DNA of 64,000 bases from an uncultured Planctomycetota bacterium (GTDB lineage: Bacteria > Planctomycetota > UBA1135 > UBA2386), in NCBI GenBank assembly GCA_963823025.1, contig CAWGKH010000004.1, positions 9,253 to 73,252 of the forward strand, read 5' to 3'. Shown in pieces: positions 2,547 through 13,942 of the stretch (position 1 is the stretch's first letter; every line of letters begins with the position of its first letter). The position numbers were made by a program, and so were the translations under genes. Under the pieces are notes generated by a model. The model had not been told where the DNA came from. It made no database searches and saw only the letters and a program-made list of their open reading frames with translations.

Positions 2547-3098
2547 TCAGCGCTTGCCGCGCCGCAGCACGTACCGGCGACCGGCGAGCCGGCCTTGCTC
2601 CGGTGTGCCGGCCGAGGCGTGGCGCGGAGCCGGCCCTTCGTCGACGAAGCCGAGGTTCTGCGCGACGCGGACCGACGCAGCGTTCTCCGGAGCGACGAAC
2701 GCGACGAGCTTCGCGACACGCGTGTGGGCGAACACGTGGTCGGCGATCGCCCGCAGCGCCTCGGTCGCGACCCCGCGGCCCTGGTGTTCGGGGAGCACCG
2801 TGAAGTAGACCTCGACGCCACCCTCGTCCGCGAGTGGCTGCAGGCCGCAGGAGCCCAGATACGCGTCGCTGTCGGGATCGGCGATCGTCATCGAGAACAC
2901 CGCGTCCTTCCCGTCGTACGACTCGATCACGTAGTCGAGGATCTGCTTCGCGCCGGCGCGCGTGCGCTGCTCCGCCGGGAACGGGATGAACCGCGTCGCC
3001 TCGTCGTCGGCCAGGAACCGCGCGAACGCGTCCAGGTCGTCGTCGCGGTGACGGCGAAGGCGCAGGTTCTCGGTCCGGATCTCGCGGGGGACCTTCAT
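2547..3098 (-). CDS. GNAT N-acetyltransferase, RimJ/RimL-like
   Basis: MKVPREIRTENLRLRR ... FTVLPEHQGRGVATEAL (Q/RxxGxG/A acetyl-CoA motif). The ATG at 3096-3098 overlaps the upstream stop (ATGA). Confidence 0.8.
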   Translation of the reverse strand: MKVPREIRTENLRLRRHRDDDLDAFARFLADDEATRFIPFPAEQRTRAGAKQILDYVIESYDGKDAVFSMTIADPDSDAYLGSCGLQPLADEGGVEVYFTVLPEHQGRGVATEALRAIADHVFAHTRVAKLVAFVAPENAASVRVAQNLGFVDEGPAPRHASAGTPEQGRLAGRRYVLRRGKR

Positions 3099-3601
3099 CG
3101 TGCGTCGGCGATCGACCGGGCGTAGATGCGCTTCGAATCGCCCGGCCCGTAGAAGTCGCGCAGCTCGGCCTCGAGCTGGTAACCGCAGCGCTCGTAGAAC
3201 GCGCGCGTCGGCGCGTATTGGGCCCGCCCGGACGTCTCGACCCAGATGCGCCCGCCACCGCGTGCGGCGATCCGCGCTTCGGTCTCGTGGAGCAGGTTTC
3301 GCCCGATGCCCTGCCCGCGCAGCTCGTCGCTTACGGCGATCCAGTAGAGGTCGTAGCTGTCGCGTGTGCCGTCGACGTGACCCCAGCACGAGTACCCGAG
3401 CAGCGCGTCCCCGCGATCCGCGAACAGGAACTCGTAGCCGCTCGCCGGGCCCTTCGCGAGGCGCGCCTCGACGAGCTCCGCGGCGATCCGCACCTCGTCG
3501 TCGTTGAAGTAGCCGGTGCGGCGCACGAGGTCGCGCACCGCTGCGACGTCGGACGGGCGCACTGCCTCGCGCAGGACGAACTCGGGAACCGCCTCGCTCA
3601 T
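3095..3601 (-). CDS. GNAT family N-acetyltransferase
   Basis: 168 aa; WIAVSDELRGQGIGRNLL acetyl-CoA motif and FYERCGY tail. ATGA overlaps at both ends (3598-3601 and 3095-3098). Confidence 0.8.
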   Translation of the reverse strand: MSEAVPEFVLREAVRPSDVAAVRDLVRRTGYFNDDEVRIAAELVEARLAKGPASGYEFLFADRGDALLGYSCWGHVDGTRDSYDLYWIAVSDELRGQGIGRNLLHETEARIAARGGGRIWVETSGRAQYAPTRAFYERCGYQLEAELRDFYGPGDSKRIYARSIADAR

Positions 3602-5331
3602 CGGTCACCTCCGGACACGAGCCCAGCGAAGAACGCCCGCGCATTCTGCCCGAGCGAGGTCGTCCGGTAACCACCCTCCTGGACGACCAGCGCCGGAACC
3701 CGGAGCGCGCCGAGCAGCTGCCCGTTGTTCTCGAAGTCCGCGCTCCTCAGCGACCAGGTCCCGGTCGGGTCCTTCTGGGCCGTGTCGAGGCCGAGCGCGA
3801 TCACCAGGAACCGCGGGCCGAACTCCTGCACCGCGCGCAGCGCCTTCTTCAGCTCCTTCCGATACCGCTCGCCGTCGACCTGCTCGGGCAGTGGGAAGTT
3901 GTGATTGCAGCCGAGACCGGGCCCGGCGCCGTGCTCCTCGGCGAACCCCGAGAAGAACGGATACGCGAATCGCGGATGGCCGTGCAGCGACACGGTCAGG
4001 ACGTCGTCGCGCTCGTAGAAGATGTCCTGCTGCCCGTTTCCGTGGTGGTAGTCGACGTCGACGATCGCCACCCTGCCGTGGGCGCTGAGATAGTGCGCGG
4101 CGATCGCGGCGTTGTTGAAGTAGCAGAAGCCACCGAACACCTTTCGCTCGGCGTGGTGCCCGGGCGGACGCACCAGCGCGTAGGCGACGCGCTGGCCGTT
4201 CAACACGGCATCGGCCGCGGTCAGCGCGCAATCGACGCCGCGACGTGCCGCCTTCCACGCGTTGCGATTCAGCGGCGTGAACGTGTCGATGCACCAGTAG
4301 CCCGCGGCGTACGCGAGATCCTCCGGGGGCCTCGCCTGGTTGCGCACCGGGAACACGTACGGATAGATCGACTTGCCGGCTTCGACCGTCTCGCACGCCG
4401 CCTTCACGTAGCGAAACAGGCCTTTGTCGTGCACGGCGAGGACGTGAGCGTCGGGAAAGCTCTTCGGCTCGATGCGCCAGAACATCCCGCTGGGCTCGAT
4501 CGCCTTGAGGATCGAGCGCACGCGAGCCGGCGCTTCGACGTAGCCGCGTTCCCGGACGTGGTGGATGTCGTGCTCGGTGTTGACGACCAGGGCGATCAGC
4601 CGTTCGCCGGTCAGCTGGTTCCGCGGCGGCTTGGGCTTCCGGTGATAGCGCGGCTCGCGCAGCCGCACCGGATCGTCCTGGAACGACTCGACGACGCGCT
4701 CGACGTACGCCGGCGGACACAGCGCCGCGTACTTGCGCTCGAGGATCGCGCGCACGACCAGCCGCGCATCGTCGCGCCGGAGCGGTGCCTCCCGGTCGAG
4801 CCCGTCCCACACCAGGTGCGGCATGTCGAGCTGTCCCGCGCTCAGCGGCAGCTCGTAGTCGGTGCCCGCGATCGGGCGTGCCCCCCAGCGCTCGTAGAAC
4901 GCGAGGCGCTTCTGGTTCGGCTCGACGAAGCTCGGGTCGCTGACGGCCTCGGGCTCGTCGGGCAGACACTCGTAGAACAGCCCGAGCGGCGCGATCGCCC
5001 GCGCGGCCTCGCGGATGCGCTCGTAGAGGGCGCCGCCGACGCCGTGGCCCGACAGTCCGCTGGCCGCCGCGACGTAGTCGAGCAGGCAGAAGCCGATGTC
5101 GGGAGCGTGCGAGAGCAGTGCGAAGCCCTTGTGGCGACCACGCAGGTCGTCGGCCACGAACAGCAGCGCCCGGAACCGATGCGCGAGCGGGTCGCGGAGG
5201 CGGTCGGGGAGCTCGTCGATCTCCTCGGTGGGGATCCCCGGCAGGCGCTCCTTCAGGATGCGCTGCACGGTCGCGATCTCCCGGCGATCGGCCGGGAGCG
5301 ACGAGTCGGTGACCTCGCGGATTCGGAACAT
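3598..5331 (-). CDS. Fusion protein: N-terminal GNAT-like domain plus C-terminal histone-deacetylase-family (acetylpolyamine/acetoin-type) amidohydrolase
   Basis: Start MFRIREV at 5331. The N-terminal ~200 aa carry GLSGHGVGGALYERI (GNAT-like). The C-terminal half has RPPGHHA, DVDYHHGNGQQ (Zn ligands) and QEGGY, the HDAC class signatures. Confidence 0.8.
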   Translation of the reverse strand: MFRIREVTDSSLPADRREIATVQRILKERLPGIPTEEIDELPDRLRDPLAHRFRALLFVADDLRGRHKGFALLSHAPDIGFCLLDYVAAASGLSGHGVGGALYERIREAARAIAPLGLFYECLPDEPEAVSDPSFVEPNQKRLAFYERWGARPIAGTDYELPLSAGQLDMPHLVWDGLDREAPLRRDDARLVVRAILERKYAALCPPAYVERVVESFQDDPVRLREPRYHRKPKPPRNQLTGERLIALVVNTEHDIHHVRERGYVEAPARVRSILKAIEPSGMFWRIEPKSFPDAHVLAVHDKGLFRYVKAACETVEAGKSIYPYVFPVRNQARPPEDLAYAAGYWCIDTFTPLNRNAWKAARRGVDCALTAADAVLNGQRVAYALVRPPGHHAERKVFGGFCYFNNAAIAAHYLSAHGRVAIVDVDYHHGNGQQDIFYERDDVLTVSLHGHPRFAYPFFSGFAEEHGAGPGLGCNHNFPLPEQVDGERYRKELKKALRAVQEFGPRFLVIALGLDTAQKDPTGTWSLRSADFENNGQLLGALRVPALVVQEGGYRTTSLGQNARAFFAGLVSGGDR

Positions 5332-5332
5332 C

Positions 5333-6307
5333 TCAGCGTGACGCGTCGGCGACGATGCGCGCGATCGCGTCCGGCAGCGTGAGTCCCGCTCGCTCCACCG
5401 CAGCCGCGAAACCGGCGTCCGGGGACAGGCAGGGGTTGGTGTTGACCTCCAGGATCCACGGCTTGCCCGCGGCGTCCACTCGAAAGTCCACCCGGGCCCA
5501 GCCGCGCAGACCGAAGGCGTGCCAGCACGCGAGCGCGAGCCGTTCGAGCTCCCGCAGCAGCGGTGCGTCCGTGGTTGCGAAGTCGAAGCGCCGCGGCGTC
5601 GTGTGGTACTCGCGGCTGTCCGTGTCCCACTTCGCACGCCAATCGACGATGCGCGGTCGGTCCGTGTCCCAGTCGATGAAGTCGATCTCCGCCGGCGGCA
5701 GGACCTCCGGTCCGTCCTCGCTCGCGAGCACCGAGAGATTGAACTCGCGACCGTCGACGTAGCGCTCCGCGAACGACTCGCCGCCGAGCTCGACGCGGCG
5801 GGCCGCGATCGCCGCGCGCAGCATCGCTTCGTCGGTGGCGTCCACGAGGGCGTCCGCGTCGAGACCCAGGGAGCCGTGCTCCCACACCGACTTGATCAGG
5901 TGCCGACCCGGGACCACGTCGGTGCTGCCGTGCGCCTCGCACCAGTCGGGGGTCGGCAGGCCGGCGCCGCGGAGCAGCCGCTTGGCGAGCACCTTGTTCG
6001 ACGTCGTGTAGATCGCGTCGGCCGGCGCGCCGGTGTAGGGCACGGCGAGCGCGTCGAGCAGGGCGGGCGCGAAGTGGATCAACCGGCCGGTGCGCGCGAT
6101 CGACTCGACGAGGTTGAACACGAGATCGGGAGACTCGCCGTTCACGGCGTGCACGAGCTTCTCCAGGTCGAGTCCACACGGCGCCGCGCTCACGACGTGG
6201 CCGAGTGTCCGCAGCGCGTCCGCGACCTCATCACGCTGGACCAGCACGTCCAGCTCGTCGGGACGCGCATCGGCGTCGACGTCGTCGTGGAGGATCAGGA
6301 CGCGCAT
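5333..6307 (-). CDS. D-Ala-D-Ala-ligase-like ATP-grasp enzyme
   Basis: MRVLILHDD ... HGSLGLD ... GWARVDFRVDAAGKPWILEVNTNPCLS, the Ddl-family ATP-grasp C-terminal pattern. The start overlaps the upstream gene by 13 nt. Confidence 0.75.
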   Translation of the reverse strand: MRVLILHDDVDADARPDELDVLVQRDEVADALRTLGHVVSAAPCGLDLEKLVHAVNGESPDLVFNLVESIARTGRLIHFAPALLDALAVPYTGAPADAIYTTSNKVLAKRLLRGAGLPTPDWCEAHGSTDVVPGRHLIKSVWEHGSLGLDADALVDATDEAMLRAAIAARRVELGGESFAERYVDGREFNLSVLASEDGPEVLPPAEIDFIDWDTDRPRIVDWRAKWDTDSREYHTTPRRFDFATTDAPLLRELERLALACWHAFGLRGWARVDFRVDAAGKPWILEVNTNPCLSPDAGFAAAVERAGLTLPDAIARIVADASR

Positions 6308-7290
6308 GGCTCGTTCGCGCGTGCGCGACGCTTCGCCGAGTCGAGGATCTGGCCGATCAGATCGCGGTACGCGATGCCCGCGAGGCCCGCCATGATCGGC
6401 AGGTCGGAGTGGGTGGGATGCAGGCCGGGCAGCGGGTTCAGCTCGAGCACCTCGAGTCGGCCACCGTCGGCCTGACGGACGTCGACGCGTCCGCCGTCGC
6501 GGCAGCCGATGCCGCGCCAGGCGGTCAGTGCCAGGGCTTCGGCCTCTCCGGCGAGCGGGCCGTGCGCGAGCCGGTACTCCACCAGCGACTCGCAGTCCTC
6601 CTTGTTGCGCTGCGTGTAGACGCCTGCATCCGCGCCGGCGAGCAGCACGACCTCGAGCACGGCGACGGCGCGCGCGTGCTCGCCGGTGCCGATCACGCCG
6701 ACCGTGAACTCGCGACCGGGCAGGAAGCGCTCGACGAGCACCGGCTGCCGATGGTTGGCGAGCAGCTTCGCGCAGATGCGTTCGAGACCGGCGCGGTCGT
6801 CGACCCGCGAATCGGCGTGCACGCCCTTGCTCGTGCCCTCGGCCACCGGCTTCGCGAACAGCGGGAACGGCAGCTCGACGCGTGCGGCGTCCGCGACGCG
6901 TTCGACGAGCGCGAACGCTGGCGTCGGCACACCCAGGTCCCTGAGCACGCGCTTCGCCATCGCCTTGTGGAGGGTCAGCGCGCAGACCAGCGGATCGGAG
7001 AACGTGTACGGGATGCCGTGGGCGTCGAGCAGCGCCGGGACCTGGGATTCGCGGCCGATCCCGTGCATCCCCTCGGCGATGTTCCACACGAGGTCCCAGC
7101 GGTCACCGGCGCAGAGCCGCGGCAGGAGCGCGTGCAGGTTGCCGATGCGATCCGGTGCGTGGCCGAGCTCGACGATCGCGCTCTCGATCGCGTCGACGGT
7201 CGCCGGGCTGTCGAATTCGGCGACCTCCTCGAGCGAATGACCGCGGGCGAGCCAGTCGTCGCGCAGGTCGTAGGTCAGTCCGATCTTCAT
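6295..7290 (-). CDS. D-Ala-D-Ala-ligase-like ATP-grasp enzyme (second, divergent copy)
   Basis: MKIGLTYDLRDD ... PLFAKPVAEGTSKGV ... VERFLPGREFTVGV ... GRVDVRQADGGRLEVLELNPLPGL. The ATG at 7288-7290 overlaps the stop of the YkgJ gene. Confidence 0.75.
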   Translation of the reverse strand: MKIGLTYDLRDDWLARGHSLEEVAEFDSPATVDAIESAIVELGHAPDRIGNLHALLPRLCAGDRWDLVWNIAEGMHGIGRESQVPALLDAHGIPYTFSDPLVCALTLHKAMAKRVLRDLGVPTPAFALVERVADAARVELPFPLFAKPVAEGTSKGVHADSRVDDRAGLERICAKLLANHRQPVLVERFLPGREFTVGVIGTGEHARAVAVLEVVLLAGADAGVYTQRNKEDCESLVEYRLAHGPLAGEAEALALTAWRGIGCRDGGRVDVRQADGGRLEVLELNPLPGLHPTHSDLPIMAGLAGIAYRDLIGQILDSAKRRARANEPCAS

Positions 7291-7802
7291 GCCGCGCCTC
7301 CGATCGTGCCGGCGTCGGCGTGCAACTCCGCGTAGAGGCGCGTCCGCCAGCGGTCGGCGTCCGCCTGCGCCATCGCGAGCACGGCGAGCATCGACGTCGA
7401 TGCGCCGCCGAACAGCGCGATGGGGCAGTAGTCGGGGTCCTCGCCGTCGAGTCCGGCTGCGGTGTAGGTCCACGGATAGAGGCGGCAGACGAGCGGCCGC
7501 ACCGATTCCGGAAGCGTGCAACCTGCCGCGCCGAGGAACGTGCAGTCGCCGTCGTCCCGCCGGCGGAGCATGTGCCGCCGGCCGTCGGCGCAAACGGTGA
7601 GCGCTCGCCATTCCGGATCCCGCGGGTCGTGCTCGACATACGCGGGATCGGTTGGGACGCGCCGCTCGTGGAAGTCGTCGCGACCTCCGAGGTGCGCGCG
7701 GATGCGTTCGACGTCGCCGCCGGTCACGAGGATCTCCGCGCGCTGGCAGCACGTCCGCTGCACGCGGGCGCACCGCGCGCAGGGGTGGAGTTCGTCGGTC
7801 AT
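7287..7802 (-). CDS. YkgJ-family (CxxCxxCC) zinc/iron-chelating cysteine-cluster protein
   Basis: 171 aa; N-terminal CARCARVQRTCC plus further Cys (DCTF, GCTLPESVRPLVCRLYP), typical of the UPF0153/PF03692-like family. Confidence 0.65.
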   Translation of the reverse strand: MTDELHPCARCARVQRTCCQRAEILVTGGDVERIRAHLGGRDDFHERRVPTDPAYVEHDPRDPEWRALTVCADGRRHMLRRRDDGDCTFLGAAGCTLPESVRPLVCRLYPWTYTAAGLDGEDPDYCPIALFGGASTSMLAVLAMAQADADRWRTRLYAELHADAGTIGGAA

Positions 7803-7806
7803 CGGA

Positions 7807-9255
7807 TCAGCCGCAGCGCGGCCCGTGGCCGTTGCCGTTCCGCGCGGAGGTGGCGATCGCCGGGATCCGCGCGCCGCCGTTCGGCCCGCCGTGAAGCGGG
7901 TCGGGGTAGCGGAAGGTCTTGCCTTCGTAGTTGCGCAGCACGACGTCGTCGCCGTCGCGACCGACCAGGTAGCTCGGCAAGAGCGGGATCTTGCCGCCGC
8001 CGCCGGGCGCGTCGATCACGAACTGCGGCACCGCATAGCCGGTGGTGTGGCCGCGCAGACCCTCGATGATCTCGAGGCCCTTCTCGACCGGCGTCCGGAA
8101 GTGCGCGGAGCCCGGGATCGGATCGCACTGGTAGATGTAGTACGGCCGCACGCGGATCCTCAGGAGCTTGTGCATCAGCTCCTTCATCGTGTCGACGTCG
8201 TCGTTGACGCCCTTCAGGAGGACGGTCTGGCTGCCGAGCGGGATGCCGGCGTCGGCGAGCCGTTCGCACGCCTGCGCGACCTCTGGGGTGACCTCGTTCG
8301 GGTGCGTGAAGTGCACGCTGAGCCAGAACGGGTGGTAGCGCTTGAGCATCGCGCACAACGCGGGCGTGATGCGTTGCGGCAGCACGGCCGGGACCTTGGT
8401 GCCGATGCGGATGAATTCGACGTGCGGGATCGCGCGCAGCCGCGACAGCAGCCACTCGATGCGATCGTCCGCCATCGTCAGCGGGTCGCCGCCCGAGATC
8501 AGCACGTCGCGAATCGCCGGTGTCCTCGCGATGTAGTCGATCGCGCGCTCGTACTGCGCCTGGTTGAAGTGGTACTCGCCGGTCTTGCCGACGAGCCGCG
8601 AGCGTGTGCAGTAGCGGCAGTAGACCGCGCAGAAGCTCGTGACGAGGAACAGCACGCGGTCGGGATAGCGGTGGACGAGCCCCGGCACCGGCATGTCGTG
8701 GTCCTCGCCGAGCGGGTCCGCCAGCTCGCCGGGAGACTCGAGGTCTTCGCTGCCGACGGGGACCATCGTCCGGCGCAGGCCGTCGCTCGGATCGTCGGAT
8801 GCGAACAGCGACGCGTAGTAGGGCGTGATGCCGACGGGCAGACGGTCGCCGAGCGACGCGACCATCGCGCGCTCGTCGTCGGTCAGCCGGACGATGCGCT
8901 CGAGGGCCGGCAGCTCGCGCACGCGATGGCGGAGCTGCCACTTCCAGTCGTGCCACTCGGCGTCGCTGGCCAGCGGGAAGTGCCGTTCGCGGAACGCGCG
9001 CGTGGGTTCGCCGACGACGAACGCGTCGTCCTCGGCGCGGGCCAGCAACGCGGGGTGTGCGACGTGCAGCGGCGCGGGGGTCGCCCGCCACGGGCCTCGC
9101 AGGACGAGATCGCCGCGCAGCGTCGAAGGCACAGCGACCTCGGGTTCTCCCGGATCCGGGGGTTCGTCGCTCGTCGTCTCCGCTTCGGCCGACGAGGACG
9201 GGGTGTCCGAACGGACGTGCGATGCCAGGGCATCGCAGCGATGAGCAGGTGTCAT
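7807..9255 (-). CDS. kamA: Lysine 2,3-aminomutase (KamA-family radical SAM / PLP enzyme)
   Basis: WHDWKWQLRHR, TPYYASL, radical-SAM cluster motif SFCAVYCRYCTRS, ISGGDPL, YIYQCD, FRTPVEKGLEIIEGLRGHTTGY and DAPGGGGKIP (PLP lysine). About 85 aa of unmatched N-terminal extension, so the true start may be further downstream. Confidence 0.9.
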   Translation of the reverse strand: MTPAHRCDALASHVRSDTPSSSAEAETTSDEPPDPGEPEVAVPSTLRGDLVLRGPWRATPAPLHVAHPALLARAEDDAFVVGEPTRAFRERHFPLASDAEWHDWKWQLRHRVRELPALERIVRLTDDERAMVASLGDRLPVGITPYYASLFASDDPSDGLRRTMVPVGSEDLESPGELADPLGEDHDMPVPGLVHRYPDRVLFLVTSFCAVYCRYCTRSRLVGKTGEYHFNQAQYERAIDYIARTPAIRDVLISGGDPLTMADDRIEWLLSRLRAIPHVEFIRIGTKVPAVLPQRITPALCAMLKRYHPFWLSVHFTHPNEVTPEVAQACERLADAGIPLGSQTVLLKGVNDDVDTMKELMHKLLRIRVRPYYIYQCDPIPGSAHFRTPVEKGLEIIEGLRGHTTGYAVPQFVIDAPGGGGKIPLLPSYLVGRDGDDVVLRNYEGKTFRYPDPLHGGPNGGARIPAIATSARNGNGHGPRCG

Positions 9256-9494
9256 CAGTGCTCTGGGTCGAGCGATTGCCTCGGCGATCTACGGCCGCGG
9301 GGACCTGACAGGTCCCGTTCCTTCCGCGGAGGAGCACCGAAGCGGCCGCGGACCATAGATCCGCTGTCGGTCACTGCAAGGGGGTGACCGCGCCGCGCGT
9401 CGGATTTTTTCCGACCGTGCCCCGGCCCGTGGCGGTCACCGCAACGCGCGCCGCCGGCCGCTCGCGCCCGGGCGAGCTTCGGGATGAAACGCGA

Positions 9495-9527
9495 GCGGCC
9501 GCGCCCGGCAGATCCGGGCGCGGCCGC
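9495..9527 (-). terminator. GC-rich hairpin, candidate intrinsic terminator after the 9583-11157 gene
   Basis: Perfect 14-bp stem gcggccgcgcccgg / ccgggcgcggccgc with a 5-nt loop, ~55 nt downstream of the stop. On the minus-strand RNA it is followed by UCGCGUUUCAU, a weak U tract. Confidence 0.4.
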
Positions 9528-9582
9528 GGGTATGGGAATCGCTCGCCCGACCGGGGCCGGCCGGGCGACGCTCACCCTTCGA

Positions 9583-11157
9583 TCAGTTGACGTCGAGCTT
9601 CCAGTCGATGCCGTTCGTGGCGGAGATCCCGAGCGGGTTGACGCCGGGGGCCACGACGAGCGACTGGAGGTAGACGTGGACGCCGGCGAGCGACGGGTCC
9701 ATCGGCACCGGGATGCTGCTGCTCGCCGTCGCGCCCAATGTCGCGAAGCCGAACTGCGCGTTGAAGCCGGCGTTGAGCGTGCAACCGGGCATGCCGATGA
9801 TCGAGAGGTCGATCGGGGGCATGACCGGCGCCACGCCGAGGGCCAGCACGCCACCGAGCGCGGTGGCCGGGATGTTCTGGGTCTCGACGCTGCCGCTGGT
9901 GCCGATCACCGGCCGTGCGCCCGGAGCGAGCGCGAGAGCCGCATAGCCGTCGGACAGGGCCGTGGCCATGAGCGTCGAGAGGTCGCTCGAACCCGGGTCG
10001 GACGCGTTGCCGCCCTGGCTGTAACCGACGATCGAGTCGAGGCTCGAGCACGCGCCGTACTTGACCTCGATGTTGCCGGACTGGCTGAACGTGACCTGGA
10101 AGGTGTTGGAGCCGGTATTGGTGTACTCGGGCACGCCGGTGAAGGTCACGTGGAACAGCGACGGGTTGCCCGCATCCTGTTCGGCGTTGATCGTGCCGCC
10201 GCCGGCCGCGCTCGGATTGAGGTCGTCCCACAGCGGGCAGACCCGCGGCGGGCTCGACAGCAGCTCGGTCACGCTCTCGGTGAACGACGCGCCGCTCCAC
10301 ATTTCGAGGCTGATGAACCCGTTCGAGCAGACCCAGACGCTCGAGGTCATGCCGTTGGCGTACGGCATCGCCCACGGCAGGGCGATCTGCTGCGTGTCGT
10401 CGTCACCGAACGTGATCGCGGCGCCGGTCGGCGCGACGATCGGGCTCGCGCCCTGCACGAAGGCGTACGCGCCCGGGCCGCGGTTGAGCGTGAAGCCGCT
10501 GTTCGACAGGTCGAATGCGTTGGTGGTGCCGTCGAACAGCTCGTAGAGCGAGGGTTTCGGGGTTGCGCCGCAGCCGCTGCCGTACGGCGTGGCCGACGCG
10601 TAGTTCGCACCCGGCTGGTAGTAGATCGTGCCGTTCCACACCCGGGGGTCGTAGAGACCGGTGAACAGGCCGGTGGTCGAGGAGCCCAGCGCCAGCGACA
10701 GGTCGGCGTTCGAGTAGCTCTGGTTCGTGCCGTTGCCGTTGGTGTAGTTCATCCCGACGCCGTTGAACAGGATCGCGATCCCGTAGGTGCCCGGGGTCAA
10801 CACGATCGGCGTGTTCAGCACGGCGTTGGTCGGCAAGCCGGTGCCGGCGGCCGAGAACGACGCGCTGCTGGACACCAGCGTCCAGGCGCCGGCGTTGTTC
10901 TGGTTGCCGACGTAGGTGCCGCCCGCGGCGGTGATGTAGACGTCGATCGTGCCGCCGGTGCCGGCGGCGCTCGAGAGGTTCAGGTCGAAGCTGGTGATGG
11001 TGACCGCGATGTTCGGCGTGATGTCGAACATGTTCATCCAGCCGGCGCTGCCGCCGTTGCCACCGGCGAACAAGGTCGTGATCGACGATTGCGCCGGAGC
11101 GACGGCCGCCAGCGCGGCGAGGATGGAGAGGGAGCGGAGGACGTGGGTGGTCTTCAT
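9583..11157 (-). CDS. Secreted protein of unknown function, tandem paralog A (524 aa)
   Basis: Start MKTTHVLRSLSILAALAAVAPAQS (signal peptide). The central VCSNGFISL ... PLWDDLNP ... NTFQVTF region resembles a NIDO-like pattern. C-terminal module GMPGCTL ... IPVPMDPSLAG ... LQS ... ATNGIDWKLDVN. About 60% identical by eye to the next gene. Confidence 0.75.
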   Translation of the reverse strand: MKTTHVLRSLSILAALAAVAPAQSSITTLFAGGNGGSAGWMNMFDITPNIAVTITSFDLNLSSAAGTGGTIDVYITAAGGTYVGNQNNAGAWTLVSSSASFSAAGTGLPTNAVLNTPIVLTPGTYGIAILFNGVGMNYTNGNGTNQSYSNADLSLALGSSTTGLFTGLYDPRVWNGTIYYQPGANYASATPYGSGCGATPKPSLYELFDGTTNAFDLSNSGFTLNRGPGAYAFVQGASPIVAPTGAAITFGDDDTQQIALPWAMPYANGMTSSVWVCSNGFISLEMWSGASFTESVTELLSSPPRVCPLWDDLNPSAAGGGTINAEQDAGNPSLFHVTFTGVPEYTNTGSNTFQVTFSQSGNIEVKYGACSSLDSIVGYSQGGNASDPGSSDLSTLMATALSDGYAALALAPGARPVIGTSGSVETQNIPATALGGVLALGVAPVMPPIDLSIIGMPGCTLNAGFNAQFGFATLGATASSSIPVPMDPSLAGVHVYLQSLVVAPGVNPLGISATNGIDWKLDVN

Positions 11158-11347
11158 CGGATCTCGCGAGTAGGGGGAGAGGGAGGAGCGGGGCCGGAGA
11201 CACTCCGGAGCTGCCCGGGCACAAATGCCGGTGGGGAGACGGATGCCGTCGAGGAGGTGTTCCGTGGGGCCGGTCGGTCGCCGGGATTTTTCGGGCGGAG
11301 AGACGCCGAGAGACCGCGCGAATACGGCGCCCCGGATCACCGCGCGC

Positions 11348-12922
11348 TCACTGCACGTCGAGGCGCCAGTCGAGGCCGTTGGTCGCCGCGATGCCGAACG
11401 AGTTGACGCCCGGCGCCACGACGAACGACTGCAGGTAGAGGTGCGCGCCCGCGAGTCCGGGGGTGGACGGGAGTGGCAGGCTCTGCGGCGCCGTGGAGCC
11501 GCTGATCGGGAGCCCGAGCTGCGCATCGAAGCCGACGAGCAGCGAGCAGCGGGTCATGCCGAGGAAGGAGAGATCGACCGGCGGCGTGACCTGGGCGAGA
11601 CCATAGGCCACGACGCCGCCGAGGCTGCCGGTGGGGATGTTCCGCGTCTCGATCGTCGCGGTCTGGCCGAGCACGGGCCGGGCGACCGAGGCGAGCATGA
11701 GGTTCGGGCGATCGTCGCCGATCGGCACGGCGGTGATCGCCGAGATGTCGGTGGCCCCCGGGTCGAGGGCGCCGCCGCCCCGGCTGTAGCCGACCATGCA
11801 GTCGCCGACGCTGCAGCTCCCGTACTGGACTTCGATCTGGCCGGACTGCGCGAACGTGACCTGGAACGTGTTGGCGCCGACGGCCGGATACTCAGGCACC
11901 CCCGTCCACGTGACGTGGAACAGCGCGGGGTTCGTCGGATCCTGCTCGGCGTTGACGGTGCCGCCGCCGGTCGTGCCCGGATTGAGGTCGTCCCACATCG
12001 GGCAGACGCGCGGCAGACCCGAGGTCAGCAACGAGACCGATTCGGTGAGGTCGGTGGCGGCCGTCGACTCCAAGGACACGAACCCGTTGGAGCAGACCCA
12101 GATGTTCGCGGTGACGCCGTTCTGGTAGGGCATCTGCCACGGCAGGGCGATCGGCAGGGTCTGGTCGTCGGCGATCGTCAGTGGCGCGCCGGTGGGTGTG
12201 ACGATCGGTGTCGCGCCGGGAGTCACCACGTAGTTGCTGCCGGCGGCCAGCATCGTGAACCCGCTGTTCGAGAGATCGAACGCGTTGGTGCCGCCGAACA
12301 CCTCGTAGAAGCTCGAGGGGAAGCCGCCGCCACAGCCGGTCCCGAACGGCGTCGCCGACGCGTAGTTGGCGCCGACGAAGTAGTAGACGGTGCCGTTCCA
12401 GACGCGTGGCGTGTTGATCGTGCCGCCGAAGCCCGCCGTCGTCGAGCAACCGAACTGCATCGACAGGTCGGCGTTGGACACGGTCTGGTTGCTGCCGTTG
12501 CCGTTCGTGTAGCTCATCGACACGCCGTTGTAGAGGATCGCCACCCCGTAGGTTCCCGGAGCGACGACGATCGGTGTGTTCAAGGTCGCGTGCGTCGGTG
12601 AGTTCGCGGCGGACGCCGTGAACGTCGCGCTGCTCGACACCTGCATCCAGGGCGTGGCGGTGAGCTCGTTGCCGAGATAGGTGCCGCCGGGTGCCGTCAT
12701 GTAGACGTCGACGGTCCCGGTGGCGCCGGCGCCGCTGGAGATGTTGAGGTCGAGCGCGGTGATCGAGATCCCGTTGTTGGCCGTGAGGTCGAACATGTTC
12801 GTCCAACCGGCCGAGCCGCCGTTGCCGCCGGAGAACAAGGTGGTGATCGTCGATTGCGCGGGGGCGAGGGCGGCGAGCGCGCCGAGAGCGACGAGGGAGC
12901 GCAGAAGATGGGTGGGAGTCAT
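11348..12922 (-). CDS. Secreted protein of unknown function, tandem paralog B (524 aa)
   Basis: MTPTHLLRSLVALGALAALAPAQS signal. Same length and domain order as 9583-11157. C-terminal GMTRCSL ... LPLPSTPGLAG ... LQS ... ATNGLDWRLDVQ. Confidence 0.75.
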   Translation of the reverse strand: MTPTHLLRSLVALGALAALAPAQSTITTLFSGGNGGSAGWTNMFDLTANNGISITALDLNISSGAGATGTVDVYMTAPGGTYLGNELTATPWMQVSSSATFTASAANSPTHATLNTPIVVAPGTYGVAILYNGVSMSYTNGNGSNQTVSNADLSMQFGCSTTAGFGGTINTPRVWNGTVYYFVGANYASATPFGTGCGGGFPSSFYEVFGGTNAFDLSNSGFTMLAAGSNYVVTPGATPIVTPTGAPLTIADDQTLPIALPWQMPYQNGVTANIWVCSNGFVSLESTAATDLTESVSLLTSGLPRVCPMWDDLNPGTTGGGTVNAEQDPTNPALFHVTWTGVPEYPAVGANTFQVTFAQSGQIEVQYGSCSVGDCMVGYSRGGGALDPGATDISAITAVPIGDDRPNLMLASVARPVLGQTATIETRNIPTGSLGGVVAYGLAQVTPPVDLSFLGMTRCSLLVGFDAQLGLPISGSTAPQSLPLPSTPGLAGAHLYLQSFVVAPGVNSFGIAATNGLDWRLDVQ

Positions 12923-13078: not shown

Positions 13079-13942
13079 TCAGCGACCCTGCACGATCGCC
13101 CACACGCGCTCGAACTCGCCCCGCCGGAGCACCGCCTCCTGCATCCAGACGAACCACCGGCCACGCGCGCCGAACGCGGTCCTGGCCGCGTCGTCGGTGT
13201 CGAGCTGCAGCAGCAGCCGCCAATCCGGCGCGCCGAGCGCGAGGCCGGCGGCGCGCGGATCGGCGTAGGCGTCCGGGCGGCCGCAGCGGATGCCGTGGGT
13301 CACGAGCTGGCAGTCGAGCTGCATGTCACCGGCGAGGGGTGACGGATGGCCGAGGAGCCGGTGCTGCGGCAGACCGTCCGCGGCCGCGGCGCGGTCGCGC
13401 GCTGCGAAGAACTCCGCGTAGGCGGCGAGCTCGGCCTCGTCCGGCTCGAGCGCATCGACGACCGCGGAGTCGGGTGGCGGCAGCGTGATCTCCGGGACCG
13501 TCGTGACCGCACACGCGCGGAGCGCATCGACGCCCGCCGGGGATCGGCGGGTCACGGTGCCGGCGCGTCGCGGCTCGAGTCGGACCACGGCGCTGCCGCG
13601 ATCGCCCGGATCGGTGCCGCGCGGGCACCGGTCGAGGTCGAAGAAGAACTGCAGCAGACCTTCGGCCGGGAGCTCGCGGGCCGCGGGCTGCCGGTGGACC
13701 GATGCGAGGTCGATCTGGGCGAGGAACGCGAGCGGCCGGCCGTCGCGTTCGGGCCAGACCGCGTCGGGGCGGAGATCGGGCGCGCCGCCGATGCGGGTCG
13801 CACGCGCGCGCAGGGTCGCGCCGTCCGCGGGGACGGTCAGGAGTCGGATCGCCGGGCGGGCGGCGGCAGCCAGCGGCGCGGCGAGCCGGTCGAGGCCGGC
13901 CGCGGCGAGCTCGGCCTTGAGGTCTTGGGGCATGGCAGACAC
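13079..13942 (-). CDS. DUF1963 (YwqG-like) domain protein
   Basis: 287 aa; IGGAPDL ... FLAQIDLA ... LLQFFFD ... HRLLGHP ... LLLQLDTDD ... RGRWFVWM, the YwqG-family pattern. Confidence 0.65.
   Translation of the reverse strand: MSAMPQDLKAELAAAGLDRLAAPLAAAARPAIRLLTVPADGATLRARATRIGGAPDLRPDAVWPERDGRPLAFLAQIDLASVHRQPAARELPAEGLLQFFFDLDRCPRGTDPGDRGSAVVRLEPRRAGTVTRRSPAGVDALRACAVTTVPEITLPPPDSAVVDALEPDEAELAAYAEFFAARDRAAAADGLPQHRLLGHPSPLAGDMQLDCQLVTHGIRCGRPDAYADPRAAGLALGAPDWRLLLQLDTDDAARTAFGARGRWFVWMQEAVLRRGEFERVWAIVQGR

Follow-up and report, generated by a model that had tools for sequence, protein, structure and literature searches.

A conserved gene core of a lysine 2,3-aminomutase, two Ddl-like ATP-grasp ligases and an acetyltransferase that may form an acetylated beta-lysine peptide or amide

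Lysine 2,3-aminomutases of the KamA family convert L-lysine to beta-lysine. The window analysed here is a stretch of 64,000 nucleotides from an uncultured Planctomycetota bacterium, and its positions 2547-9255 hold an operon of seven genes. These encode a KamA-family aminomutase, a YkgJ-like cysteine-cluster protein, two ATP-grasp ligases with a fold like that of D-Ala-D-Ala ligase (Ddl), a fusion of a GNAT-like domain with an HDAC-type deacetylase, and two further GNAT acetyltransferases. The conserved unit is a four-gene core consisting of kamA, the genes of both ligases (grasp1 and grasp2) and one GNAT gene (the core GNAT); optional modules are the GNAT/HDAC fusion and ykgJ. With moderate confidence, the operon is read as a cytoplasmic pathway that would lead from L-lysine to an N-acetylated beta-lysine peptide or amide. 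The domain identities, the intact catalytic residues, the conservation of the core, the gene fusions and a motif in the N-terminal tail of KamA were all computed here.

The gene combination on which the earlier note on this DNA had built its proposal is indeed conserved in other genomes. In a genome scan with one genome per species, for which the ATP-grasp 2 alignment was used as the query, at least 588 species genomes were found to have a relative of this ligase. A HMMER search with the ATP-grasp 2 of the window as a single query against 1.84 billion representatives gave 1162 family members at E <= 1e-30. The individual genes were counted by mapping the window proteins on the best 80 loci, those with too little flanking sequence being left out of the count. 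ATP-grasp 1 is present in 61 of the 62 related loci and kamA stands beside the ligases in 60 of 62, and the core GNAT is found in 52 of 60. The GNAT/HDAC fusion is present in 18 of 60 loci (about 30%), always between grasp2 and the GNAT gene, and ykgJ in 14 of 62 (about 23%), between kamA and grasp1. The core loci are spread over Planctomycetota, Desulfobacterota, Myxococcota and Krumholzibacteriia. Since the order of the core recurs across several phyla, the arrangement is far beyond chance. The seven-gene unit that had been proposed therefore shrinks to four genes, and the tight coupling in the window is insufficient to make all seven one conserved unit. The last gene, which encodes a RimJ/L-like GNAT, lacks homologs throughout the 83 related loci, the closest relative locus included, and is a translationally coupled, lineage-specific passenger. 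With it falls the hint at a RimJ-style system that had been read from this gene.

Natural gene fusions also connect the parts of the operon. Among the best 150 ATP-grasp 2 representatives, 26 are fusions of ligase 2 with the core GNAT and 10 are fusions of ligase 1 with ligase 2. Desulfococcus encodes a single GNAT-HDAC-GNAT protein of 750 residues. The GNAT/HDAC fusion itself has more than 7,500 homologs at E <= 1e-10, of which the best 120 are full-length, with 59-79% identity, and come from Planctomycetota, Desulfobacterota and other phyla. In three genomes, those of Desulfococcus multivorans, Engelhardtia mirabilis and a planctomycete metagenome-assembled genome, the fusion lies within the same cluster. 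Because such fusions link both ligases, the core GNAT and the deacetylase, these proteins are predicted to form one functional unit. When all open reading frames (ORFs) of 84 loci were clustered without bias, no additional conserved partner was found, be it an exporter, a precursor peptide or a carrier protein. The recurring neighbours were lineage-specific housekeeping genes, namely those for Lon, ClpX, RF2 and response regulators. Enzymes of D-amino-acid metabolism were also considered as partners and rejected. An alanine racemase and a class IV (D-amino-acid-type) aminotransferase are encoded divergently beside the cluster of Desulfococcus multivorans (locus L001, 3794-5873) and in no other locus, and this adjacency is probably coincidental.

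The first enzyme of the operon can be assigned with some precision. KamA matches the lysine 2,3-aminomutase (LAM) of Clostridium subterminale (2A5H) with E = 4e-143 and is 55% identical to it in a trimmed alignment, versus 34% to EpmB. Its CxxxCxxC motif, CAVYCRYC, aligns with Cys125/129/132 of LAM. Arg134, Asp293 (in YQCD), Asp330 (in VIDAPGGGG) and the lysine that carries pyridoxal phosphate, Lys337 (in GGGGK), are also retained (LAM numbering). The two Asp residues had been located in the earlier note, and the alignment with 2A5H places both in the same motifs. In the 2A5H structure, Asp293 and Asp330 bind the epsilon-ammonium group of lysine and Arg134 its carboxylate. The Cys triad, Arg134, both Asp residues and Lys337 are retained in 20 of 20 sampled KamAs from the clusters.

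Family models and phylogeny are in line with this assignment. The highest-scoring NCBIfam model is AblA (TIGR03820, 499.7 bits, under the cutoff of 525.4), followed by glutamate 2,3-aminomutase (439.6 bits versus a cutoff of 650), arginine 2,3-aminomutase (403.5 versus 600) and EpmB (256.3 versus 369.3). The general KamA-family model TIGR00238 is matched above its cutoff (364 bits over 199), and NCBI names the orthologs 'KamA family radical SAM protein'. A neighbour-joining tree was built with Bacillus AblA, a KamA homolog of Acetoanaerobium (an unannotated record), a Deinococcus KamA-family protein, E. coli EpmB and 2A5H as references. In this tree, the KamAs linked to clusters group together in a single clade next to the KamA/AblA references, and EpmB lies far off as the outgroup. 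Glutamate aminomutases were excluded on the model scores and the Asp residues, as the references of the tree include none. Lysine is well supported as the predicted substrate because both Asp residues are retained in all 20 sampled orthologs. The preference for lysine over glutamate that had been put forward before is thus borne out, and KamA lies outside the EpmB clade.

The two ligases are related to Ddl in fold and catalytic residues and differ from it in their substrate sites. The nearest solved structures for both are D-Ala-D-Ala ligases, and in public databases both are named 'D-alanine--D-alanine ligase (family protein)' or 'ATP-grasp domain-containing protein'. With the Ddl model NF002378 of NCBIfam, ligase 1 scores 138.9 bits and ligase 2 97.8 bits, versus a cutoff of 243. 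The pockets were mapped by aligning 72 ligase 1 and 84 ligase 2 orthologs with E. coli DdlB, the numbering of which is used here. The residues for ATP, Mg and the transition state (Lys97, Lys144, Glu180, Lys215, Arg255, Asp257, Glu270 and Asn272) are invariant or nearly so in both families, with Glu270 to Asp in the ligase 2 family as the single exception. As the catalytic residues are retained, both ligases should be active. In place of the Ddl substrate triad Glu15/Ser150/Tyr216, the residues are E/T/E (ligase 1) and D/(A,G)/W (ligase 2), and at the D-Ala2 site, Ser281/Leu282 in DdlB, they are S/D and A/G, respectively; these states are conserved among the aligned orthologs. In ligase 1, the replacements H63 to E, Y216 to E and L282 to D would give an acidic pocket, a good fit for a cationic substrate like beta-lysine. 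Ligase 2 carries the additional replacement G276 to C, and its nucleophile site is predicted to be roomier owing to Ala281/Gly282. By these scores and the replaced triad, the ligases are not bona fide Ddl enzymes, which points to a systematic mis-annotation of the family as D-Ala-D-Ala ligases in databases. Membership of the RimK family was tested and rejected, the RimK model giving 19 bits versus a cutoff of 143. Ligase 2 has a match to the TTL family of 18.5 bits (versus 20.1) over 26 residues, a stretch that is common to many ATP-grasp proteins.

The presence of two ligase active sites, sometimes within one polypeptide, brings up another reading, in which the pair is a polymerase like cyanophycin synthetase or RimK. 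It would make a cationic oligo- or poly-(beta-lysine), and the GNAT and the deacetylase would tune its charge or toxicity. The acidic pocket of ligase 1 is consistent with this, and no conserved nearby enzyme supplies a second dedicated building block, so that beta-lysine could be the sole special monomer. Also, the GNATs have a weak similarity to the acetyltransferases of streptothricin and nourseothricin, enzymes that modify beta-lysine chains; this similarity (E 1e-3 to 1e-4) is at a level that is ordinary among GNATs. Known Ddl-type enzymes form single bonds, however, and genes for the handling, export or degradation of a polymer are not conserved. A polymer is therefore considered improbable.

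The catalytic residues of the deacetylase are intact as well. In the AlphaFold2 (AF2) model of the GNAT/HDAC fusion, the mean predicted local distance difference test score (pLDDT) is 86. The N-terminal domain has the beta/alpha topology of GNATs with a pLDDT mostly above 80. Its GxGxG(A)LY motif is invariant among 65 homologs, and PF00583 is annotated in the precomputed records of some homologs. In the HDAC domain, H392, H393, D425/D427, H429, D516 and Y555 are invariant in the same number of homologs, and these form the His-His dyad, the Asp-His-Asp metal site and the catalytic Tyr. The best solved relatives of this domain are acetylpolyamine amidohydrolases (APAHs; 9GKZ, 6PHR, 3Q9B and 3MEN), with E of about 1e-64 to 1e-68 by sequence and about 1e-30 by Foldseek. 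The bacterial lysine deacetylases (Kdac1, 5ZMP) and HDAH-type amidohydrolases reach E of about 1e-32 to 1e-35 by sequence, and Foldseek likewise ranks them behind the APAHs. Since the domain is closest to the APAHs, a small N-acetylated aliphatic amine would fit as its substrate, probably one other than the N-acetylated polyamines. The core GNAT matches PDB entry 2R7H, a 'putative D-alanine N-acetyltransferase of GNAT family', with E = 1e-39 and about half of the aligned residues identical by eye, and 2R7H looks like an ortholog. An AblB-like identity was rejected for both GNAT domains, as BLASTP with Bacillus velezensis AblB gave E = 0.22 and 0.041 over short stretches. The optional cysteine-cluster protein has an ortholog that is named 'YkgJ family cysteine cluster protein' at NCBI.

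These results also bear on the simplest explanation, an ordinary ablAB-type operon that yields N-epsilon-acetyl-beta-lysine as an osmolyte and merely lies beside genes for cell-wall D-Ala-D-Ala ligases. AblA is the best-scoring model for KamA, the core includes a GNAT and the ligases carry the Ddl label in databases, all of which speaks for such an operon. This explanation is contradicted by the fusions that join the ligases with one another and with the GNAT in other species and by the residue mapping, in which neither ligase has the Ddl substrate triad, in addition to their scores far under the Ddl cutoff. Neither GNAT is AblB-like, KamA falls under the AblA cutoff and in a clade of its own, and the genes are linked in about 60 of 62 loci. 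An ablAB-type operon is accordingly given hardly any credence.

A feature that was missed in the earlier note is an acidic proline motif in the N-terminal tail of KamA. The KamA of the window has an extension of about 90 aa outside the LAM fold, and in KamAs of the cluster type this extension is 60-95 residues long. Clostridium LAM and plasmid-borne AblA/KamA homologs begin at the LAM core and have no extension. In the AF2 model, residues 1-67 have a pLDDT below 50 and are predicted to be disordered, and the model gives no docking site. The tail contains the motif D-E-P-P-D-P-G, and the consensus [DE][DE]-E-P-P-[GS] is conserved across phyla. In planctomycete tails, a hydrophobic S-L-x-V-L element often stands in front of the motif. 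The strict pattern [DE]PP[GSDNEAT] is found in 118 of 170 cluster-type KamA tails, versus 9.3 expected from shuffled sequences with a maximum of 18, and 27 further tails of the 170 have a looser P-x-P variant. The motif occurs irrespective of the presence of the HDAC or ykgJ gene, and its partner, if there is one, is therefore probably a core protein. It is read here as a docking peptide, and alternatively it could be a modification site or a carrier.

The last two options belong to readings in which a protein is modified. In the first, the ligases would put beta-lysine on Glu or Asp residues of an acidic tail, one initiating and the other elongating, like TTLLs and RimK, and the GNAT and the HDAC-type enzyme would switch the charge of the amine. 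The acidic E-P-P-G/S tail of KamA itself would then be the most obvious target, as a primer, a carrier or a regulatory site. Acidic disordered tails are classical substrates of the peptide-modifying ATP-grasp enzymes RimK, TTLL and LysX/LysW. The frequency of the motif in cluster-type KamAs and its absence from other LAMs agree with such a role, as do the strong conservation of all parts across phyla and the weak TTL-family match of ligase 2. Against this, the ligases are of the Ddl type, which is a small-molecule clade, rather than of the RimK/TTL type, and the TTL match covers only the common 26-residue stretch. The acidic pocket of ligase 1 would be better matched by a small cationic substrate than by an acidic peptide, and the deacetylase is nearer to polyamine than to protein deacetylases. 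In addition, no release enzyme is conserved and neither is the RimJ/L-like GNAT that was behind the idea. Modification of a protein tail is for these reasons regarded as unlikely.

In a more specific form, the tail of KamA would be a built-in carrier or primer on whose Glu/Asp residues the ligases build beta-lysine units, the amines of which are then edited by the GNAT and the deacetylase. This would be comparable to tubulin polyglutamylation or to LysW-tethered biosynthesis, and it is regarded as quite unlikely. If true, it would be a new enzyme-tethered or self-modifying beta-lysylation system in several phyla of mostly anaerobic bacteria.

The same motif and the kinship of KamA with EpmB raise the question of elongation factor P (EF-P). 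EpmB, a KamA paralog, supplies the beta-lysine for EF-P, and E-P-P-G and P-P-G are among the stalling motifs known to depend on EF-P. The operon might thus be a new route of EF-P beta-lysylation, with the P-P-G motif of KamA as an EF-P-dependent sensor of translation. To our knowledge, EF-P modification has not been described in these phyla, which would leave room for such a route. However, neither the window nor any of the 83 related loci has an efp gene within 10 kb, and KamA is much closer to LAM than to EpmB, at the identities given above. The 27 tails with P-x-P variants lack the diprolyl and would not cause stalling, and the GNAT and the polyamine-type deacetylase would be left unexplained. 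A role in EF-P modification is thus very hard to reconcile with these data and is considered highly improbable.

The pathway to an acetylated beta-lysine conjugate remains the favoured reading, and beyond lysine we infer its substrates, the order of its steps, its product and the role of the tail as follows. KamA would convert L-lysine to beta-lysine, for which the (3S) configuration is assumed from the closeness to Clostridium LAM. The two ligases, both derived from Ddl, would work together as a pair, probably as a heteromer, and form two successive ATP-dependent amide bonds via acyl-phosphate intermediates. Ligase 1, with its acidic pocket, may take the cationic beta-lysine and a second amino acid, either cationic or ordinary, or another beta-lysine, and ligase 2, with its widened nucleophile pocket, may add onto the larger intermediate. 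The core GNAT, which is often fused to ligase 2, would acetylate a free amine of the product. Where present, the fusion of a GNAT with an acetylpolyamine-type amidohydrolase may acetylate and deacetylate a long aliphatic amine, for which the epsilon-amine of beta-lysine is an example, so as to protect and deprotect it or to turn over the pool. YkgJ would be an optional metal-cluster helper and the last GNAT a local add-on. The acidic E-P-P-G/S tail would most likely dock KamA to the complex of ligases and GNAT, so that beta-lysine is handed over.

This logic of making beta-lysine, ligating twice and acetylating or deacetylating is reasonable and agrees with the fusions and the pocket residues. 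It is also favoured by the fact that APAHs, the nearest relatives of the HDAC domain, act on small N-acetylated amines. Several points weigh against it. It is not obvious why the first enzyme of a plain metabolic pathway would need a tail that is acidic, disordered and conserved, such a tail being more typical of carriers or substrates, and this tail keeps a protein-directed reading alive. The high conservation of every part between phyla (50-65% identity) is likewise common among enzymes whose substrate is a conserved macromolecule. The HDAC module is absent from 70% of the loci, and a protect/deprotect cycle can therefore not be essential to the chemistry. The habitats of the hosts (groundwater, lake sediment, sludge and marine sediment) do not point to a purely osmolyte role. 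Finally, the pocket residues are leads rather than proof, as they were read from an alignment of sequences that are about 25-30% identical to DdlB.

Relatives of these genes were also observed in other settings. No plasmid with a cluster-type KamA was found in a search of plasmid sequences. Plasmid pTHIMO01 of Thioflavicoccus mobilis (locus L090, 3956-9047) carries a KamA-family gene and, on the opposite strand, genes for a Ddl-like ATP-grasp protein, an ornithine cyclodeaminase-family (SbnB-like) protein, the SbnA of 2,3-diaminopropionate synthesis and a diaminobutyrate transaminase. This composition suggests a separate orphan pathway in which beta-lysine would be joined with other diamino acids. 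It is a parallel in favour of the pathway reading, as KamA is again paired with a Ddl-like ATP-grasp ligase, next to enzymes for 2,3-diaminopropionate and diaminobutyrate, in a different small-molecule-type setting. In addition, a 1.5-kb contig that was binned as 'Methanobacteriota archaeon' encodes an ATP-grasp 2 (57% identity) followed by a GNAT. At this length, the contig fits either a genuine archaeal copy or a mistake in binning.

The features of the operon are listed in Table 1. A recheck of the ORFs of the window gave seven packed minus-strand genes, all without a frame break, with the coordinates and junctions that had been described before. The GC content at third codon positions is 0.87-0.92 for every called frame. 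After kamA, a 4-nt gap leads to the ykgJ-like gene, which overlaps grasp1 in an ATGA (7287-7290). The two ligase genes overlap by 13 nt (6295-6307, ATGCGCGTCCTGA), and a 1-nt gap separates grasp2 from the GNAT/HDAC gene (3598-5331). This gene overlaps the core GNAT gene in an ATGA (3598-3601), and so does the core GNAT gene with the last GNAT gene (3095-3098). In gene order, the seven proteins match the Pfam families LAM_C plus Radical_SAM, CxxCxxCC (a weak match), Dala_Dala_lig_C, Dala_Dala_lig_C, Hist_deacetyl, Acetyltransf_1/7 and Acetyltransf_3, which agrees throughout with the domains that had been assigned by reading the sequence.

Table 1. Features of the operon and its upstream region, with positions in the window
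Feature	Positions	Strand	Basis
KamA-family radical S-adenosylmethionine/pyridoxal phosphate lysine 2,3-aminomutase, 482 aa	7807..9255	-	LAM_C + Radical_SAM; 2A5H match
Acidic proline motif D-E-P-P-D-P-G, KamA aa 30-36	9148..9168	-	tail motif search
YkgJ-family CxxCxxCC cysteine-cluster protein, 171 aa, accessory	7287..7802	-	PF03692, 26.2 bits (cutoff 23)
ATP-grasp ligase 1, 331 aa, Ddl-like fold, predicted acidic substrate pocket	6295..7290	-	Dala_Dala_lig_C, 82 bits
ATP-grasp ligase 2, 324 aa, Ddl-like fold, predicted enlarged nucleophile pocket	5333..6307	-	Dala_Dala_lig_C, 63 bits
N-terminal GNAT-fold domain of the fusion, aa 1-255	4567..5331	-	sub-threshold Acetyltransf_7/1; AF2 topology
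C-terminal HDAC-fold amidohydrolase domain of the fusion, aa 256-577	3598..4566	-	PF00850, 252 bits
Core GNAT N-acetyltransferase, 168 aa	3095..3601	-	Acetyltransf_7/1
Acetyltransf_3 (RimJ/L-like) GNAT, 183 aa	2547..3098	-	PF13302, 102 bits
Intergenic region upstream of kamA	9256..9582	-	sequence read directly; GC-rich hairpin 9495-9527 after the upstream gene

The operon is bounded by 327 bp of intergenic sequence upstream and by a convergent gene that ends at 2545 downstream. The upstream region likely holds the promoter, which is an inference only; a consensus scan found no sigma-70-type promoter and no canonical terminator upstream of kamA. Between the upstream gene and kamA lies a perfect GC-rich inverted repeat of 14 bp (GCGGCCGCGCCCGG, a 5-nt loop and CCGGGCGCGGCCGC), which could be a terminator without a T-tract and which the consensus terminator scan did not flag. 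The window has zero Rfam matches and therefore no lysine riboswitch.

The genes that flank the operon are unrelated to it. A RecD2-like helicase (AAA_30, SH3_13 and UvrD_C_2) on the plus strand is split across the ORFs 27-1370 and 286-1176, with the break at about 200-290, and is either a pseudogene or the result of an assembly error; frame breaks elsewhere in the window had been noted before, and this is one. The adjacent minus-strand ORFs 9583-11526 and 11348-12922 (647 and 524 aa) are closely similar, have signal-peptide-like N-termini and no Pfam match, and look like tandem paralogs of a secreted protein family. At 13079-13942 (minus strand), a DUF1963-family protein is encoded, for which a link to the operon is not apparent.

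As for earlier descriptions, no NCBIfam model is matched above its cutoff by the ligases, the fusion or the core GNAT, none of the seven proteins matches a PADLOC defence-system model, and an exact-sequence look-up of the GNAT/HDAC fusion of the window gave no record. A full-text literature search returned no paper on this gene set or its product; a survey of ATP-grasp amidoligases from 2009, which is outside the coverage of the search, might list it as a prediction. The absence of a characterised pathway with these genes, as had been supposed, thus holds for the curated families and the searched literature. With no NCBIfam model above cutoff, no PADLOC match and no paper, the data indicate an uncharacterised and widespread beta-lysine pathway that is made of familiar enzyme families.

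In bacteria and archaea, beta-lysine is mainly found as an osmolyte precursor, a fermentation intermediate, a building block of antibiotics and a modifier of EF-P. The operon would add a fifth use, and an apparently widespread one, given the at least 588 species and 1162 family representatives. Among its hosts are sulfate reducers, syntrophs and planctomycetes, which are difficult to study. A defined set of four genes is available, with an existing crystal structure of a likely member (2R7H), and the predicted acidic pocket of ligase 1 and the conserved tail motif of the aminomutase are testable features that are already in hand.

Several known systems share parts of this operon. The ablA-ablB genes of methanogens and kamA-yodP-yodQ of Bacillus likewise combine a KamA/AblA-type aminomutase with a GNAT, through which beta-lysine is made and then N-acetylated, and Bacillus also has a deacetylase-type hydrolase. 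The operon described here differs in its two obligatory ATP-grasp ligases, in GNATs that are not AblB-like, in a deacetylase of the HDAC/APAH fold that is fused to a GNAT, and in a KamA that forms its own clade, scores under the AblA cutoff and has an acidic N-terminal tail. The Ddl/Van family is closest in fold to both ligases and shares their ATP, Mg and transition-state residues, whereas the ligases here are far under its cutoffs, are altered at E15/S150/Y216 and S281/L282, and are linked to kamA and GNAT genes instead of cell-wall genes. The APAHs are the best match of the HDAC domain in both sequence and fold, with intact catalytic and metal residues, and here this domain is fused to an N-terminal GNAT domain inside a beta-lysine operon.

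EpmA/EpmB also use a KamA-family aminomutase that supplies beta-lysine for an amide bond. In contrast, the KamA of this operon is LAM-type (34% identity to EpmB), the ligation is assigned to ATP-grasp ligases instead of a lysyl-tRNA synthetase paralog, and there is no efp linkage. LysW/LysX, RimK-S6 and the tubulin TTLLs combine an acidic disordered segment with ATP-grasp ligases, as is seen here, but in this operon the motif lies inside the N-terminal tail of an enzyme rather than in the C-terminal tail of a carrier, and the ligases belong to the Ddl clade. Finally, the Ngg/AsnO system makes N-acetylglutaminylglutamine amide, a cytoplasmic and non-ribosomal product, via an ATP-grasp ligase that is fused to a GNAT. 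The Ngg ligase is RimK-like rather than Ddl-like, and its pathway has no aminomutase, second ligase or deacetylase; its GNAT-fused ligase has the same architecture as the fusions of ligase 2 with the core GNAT found here.

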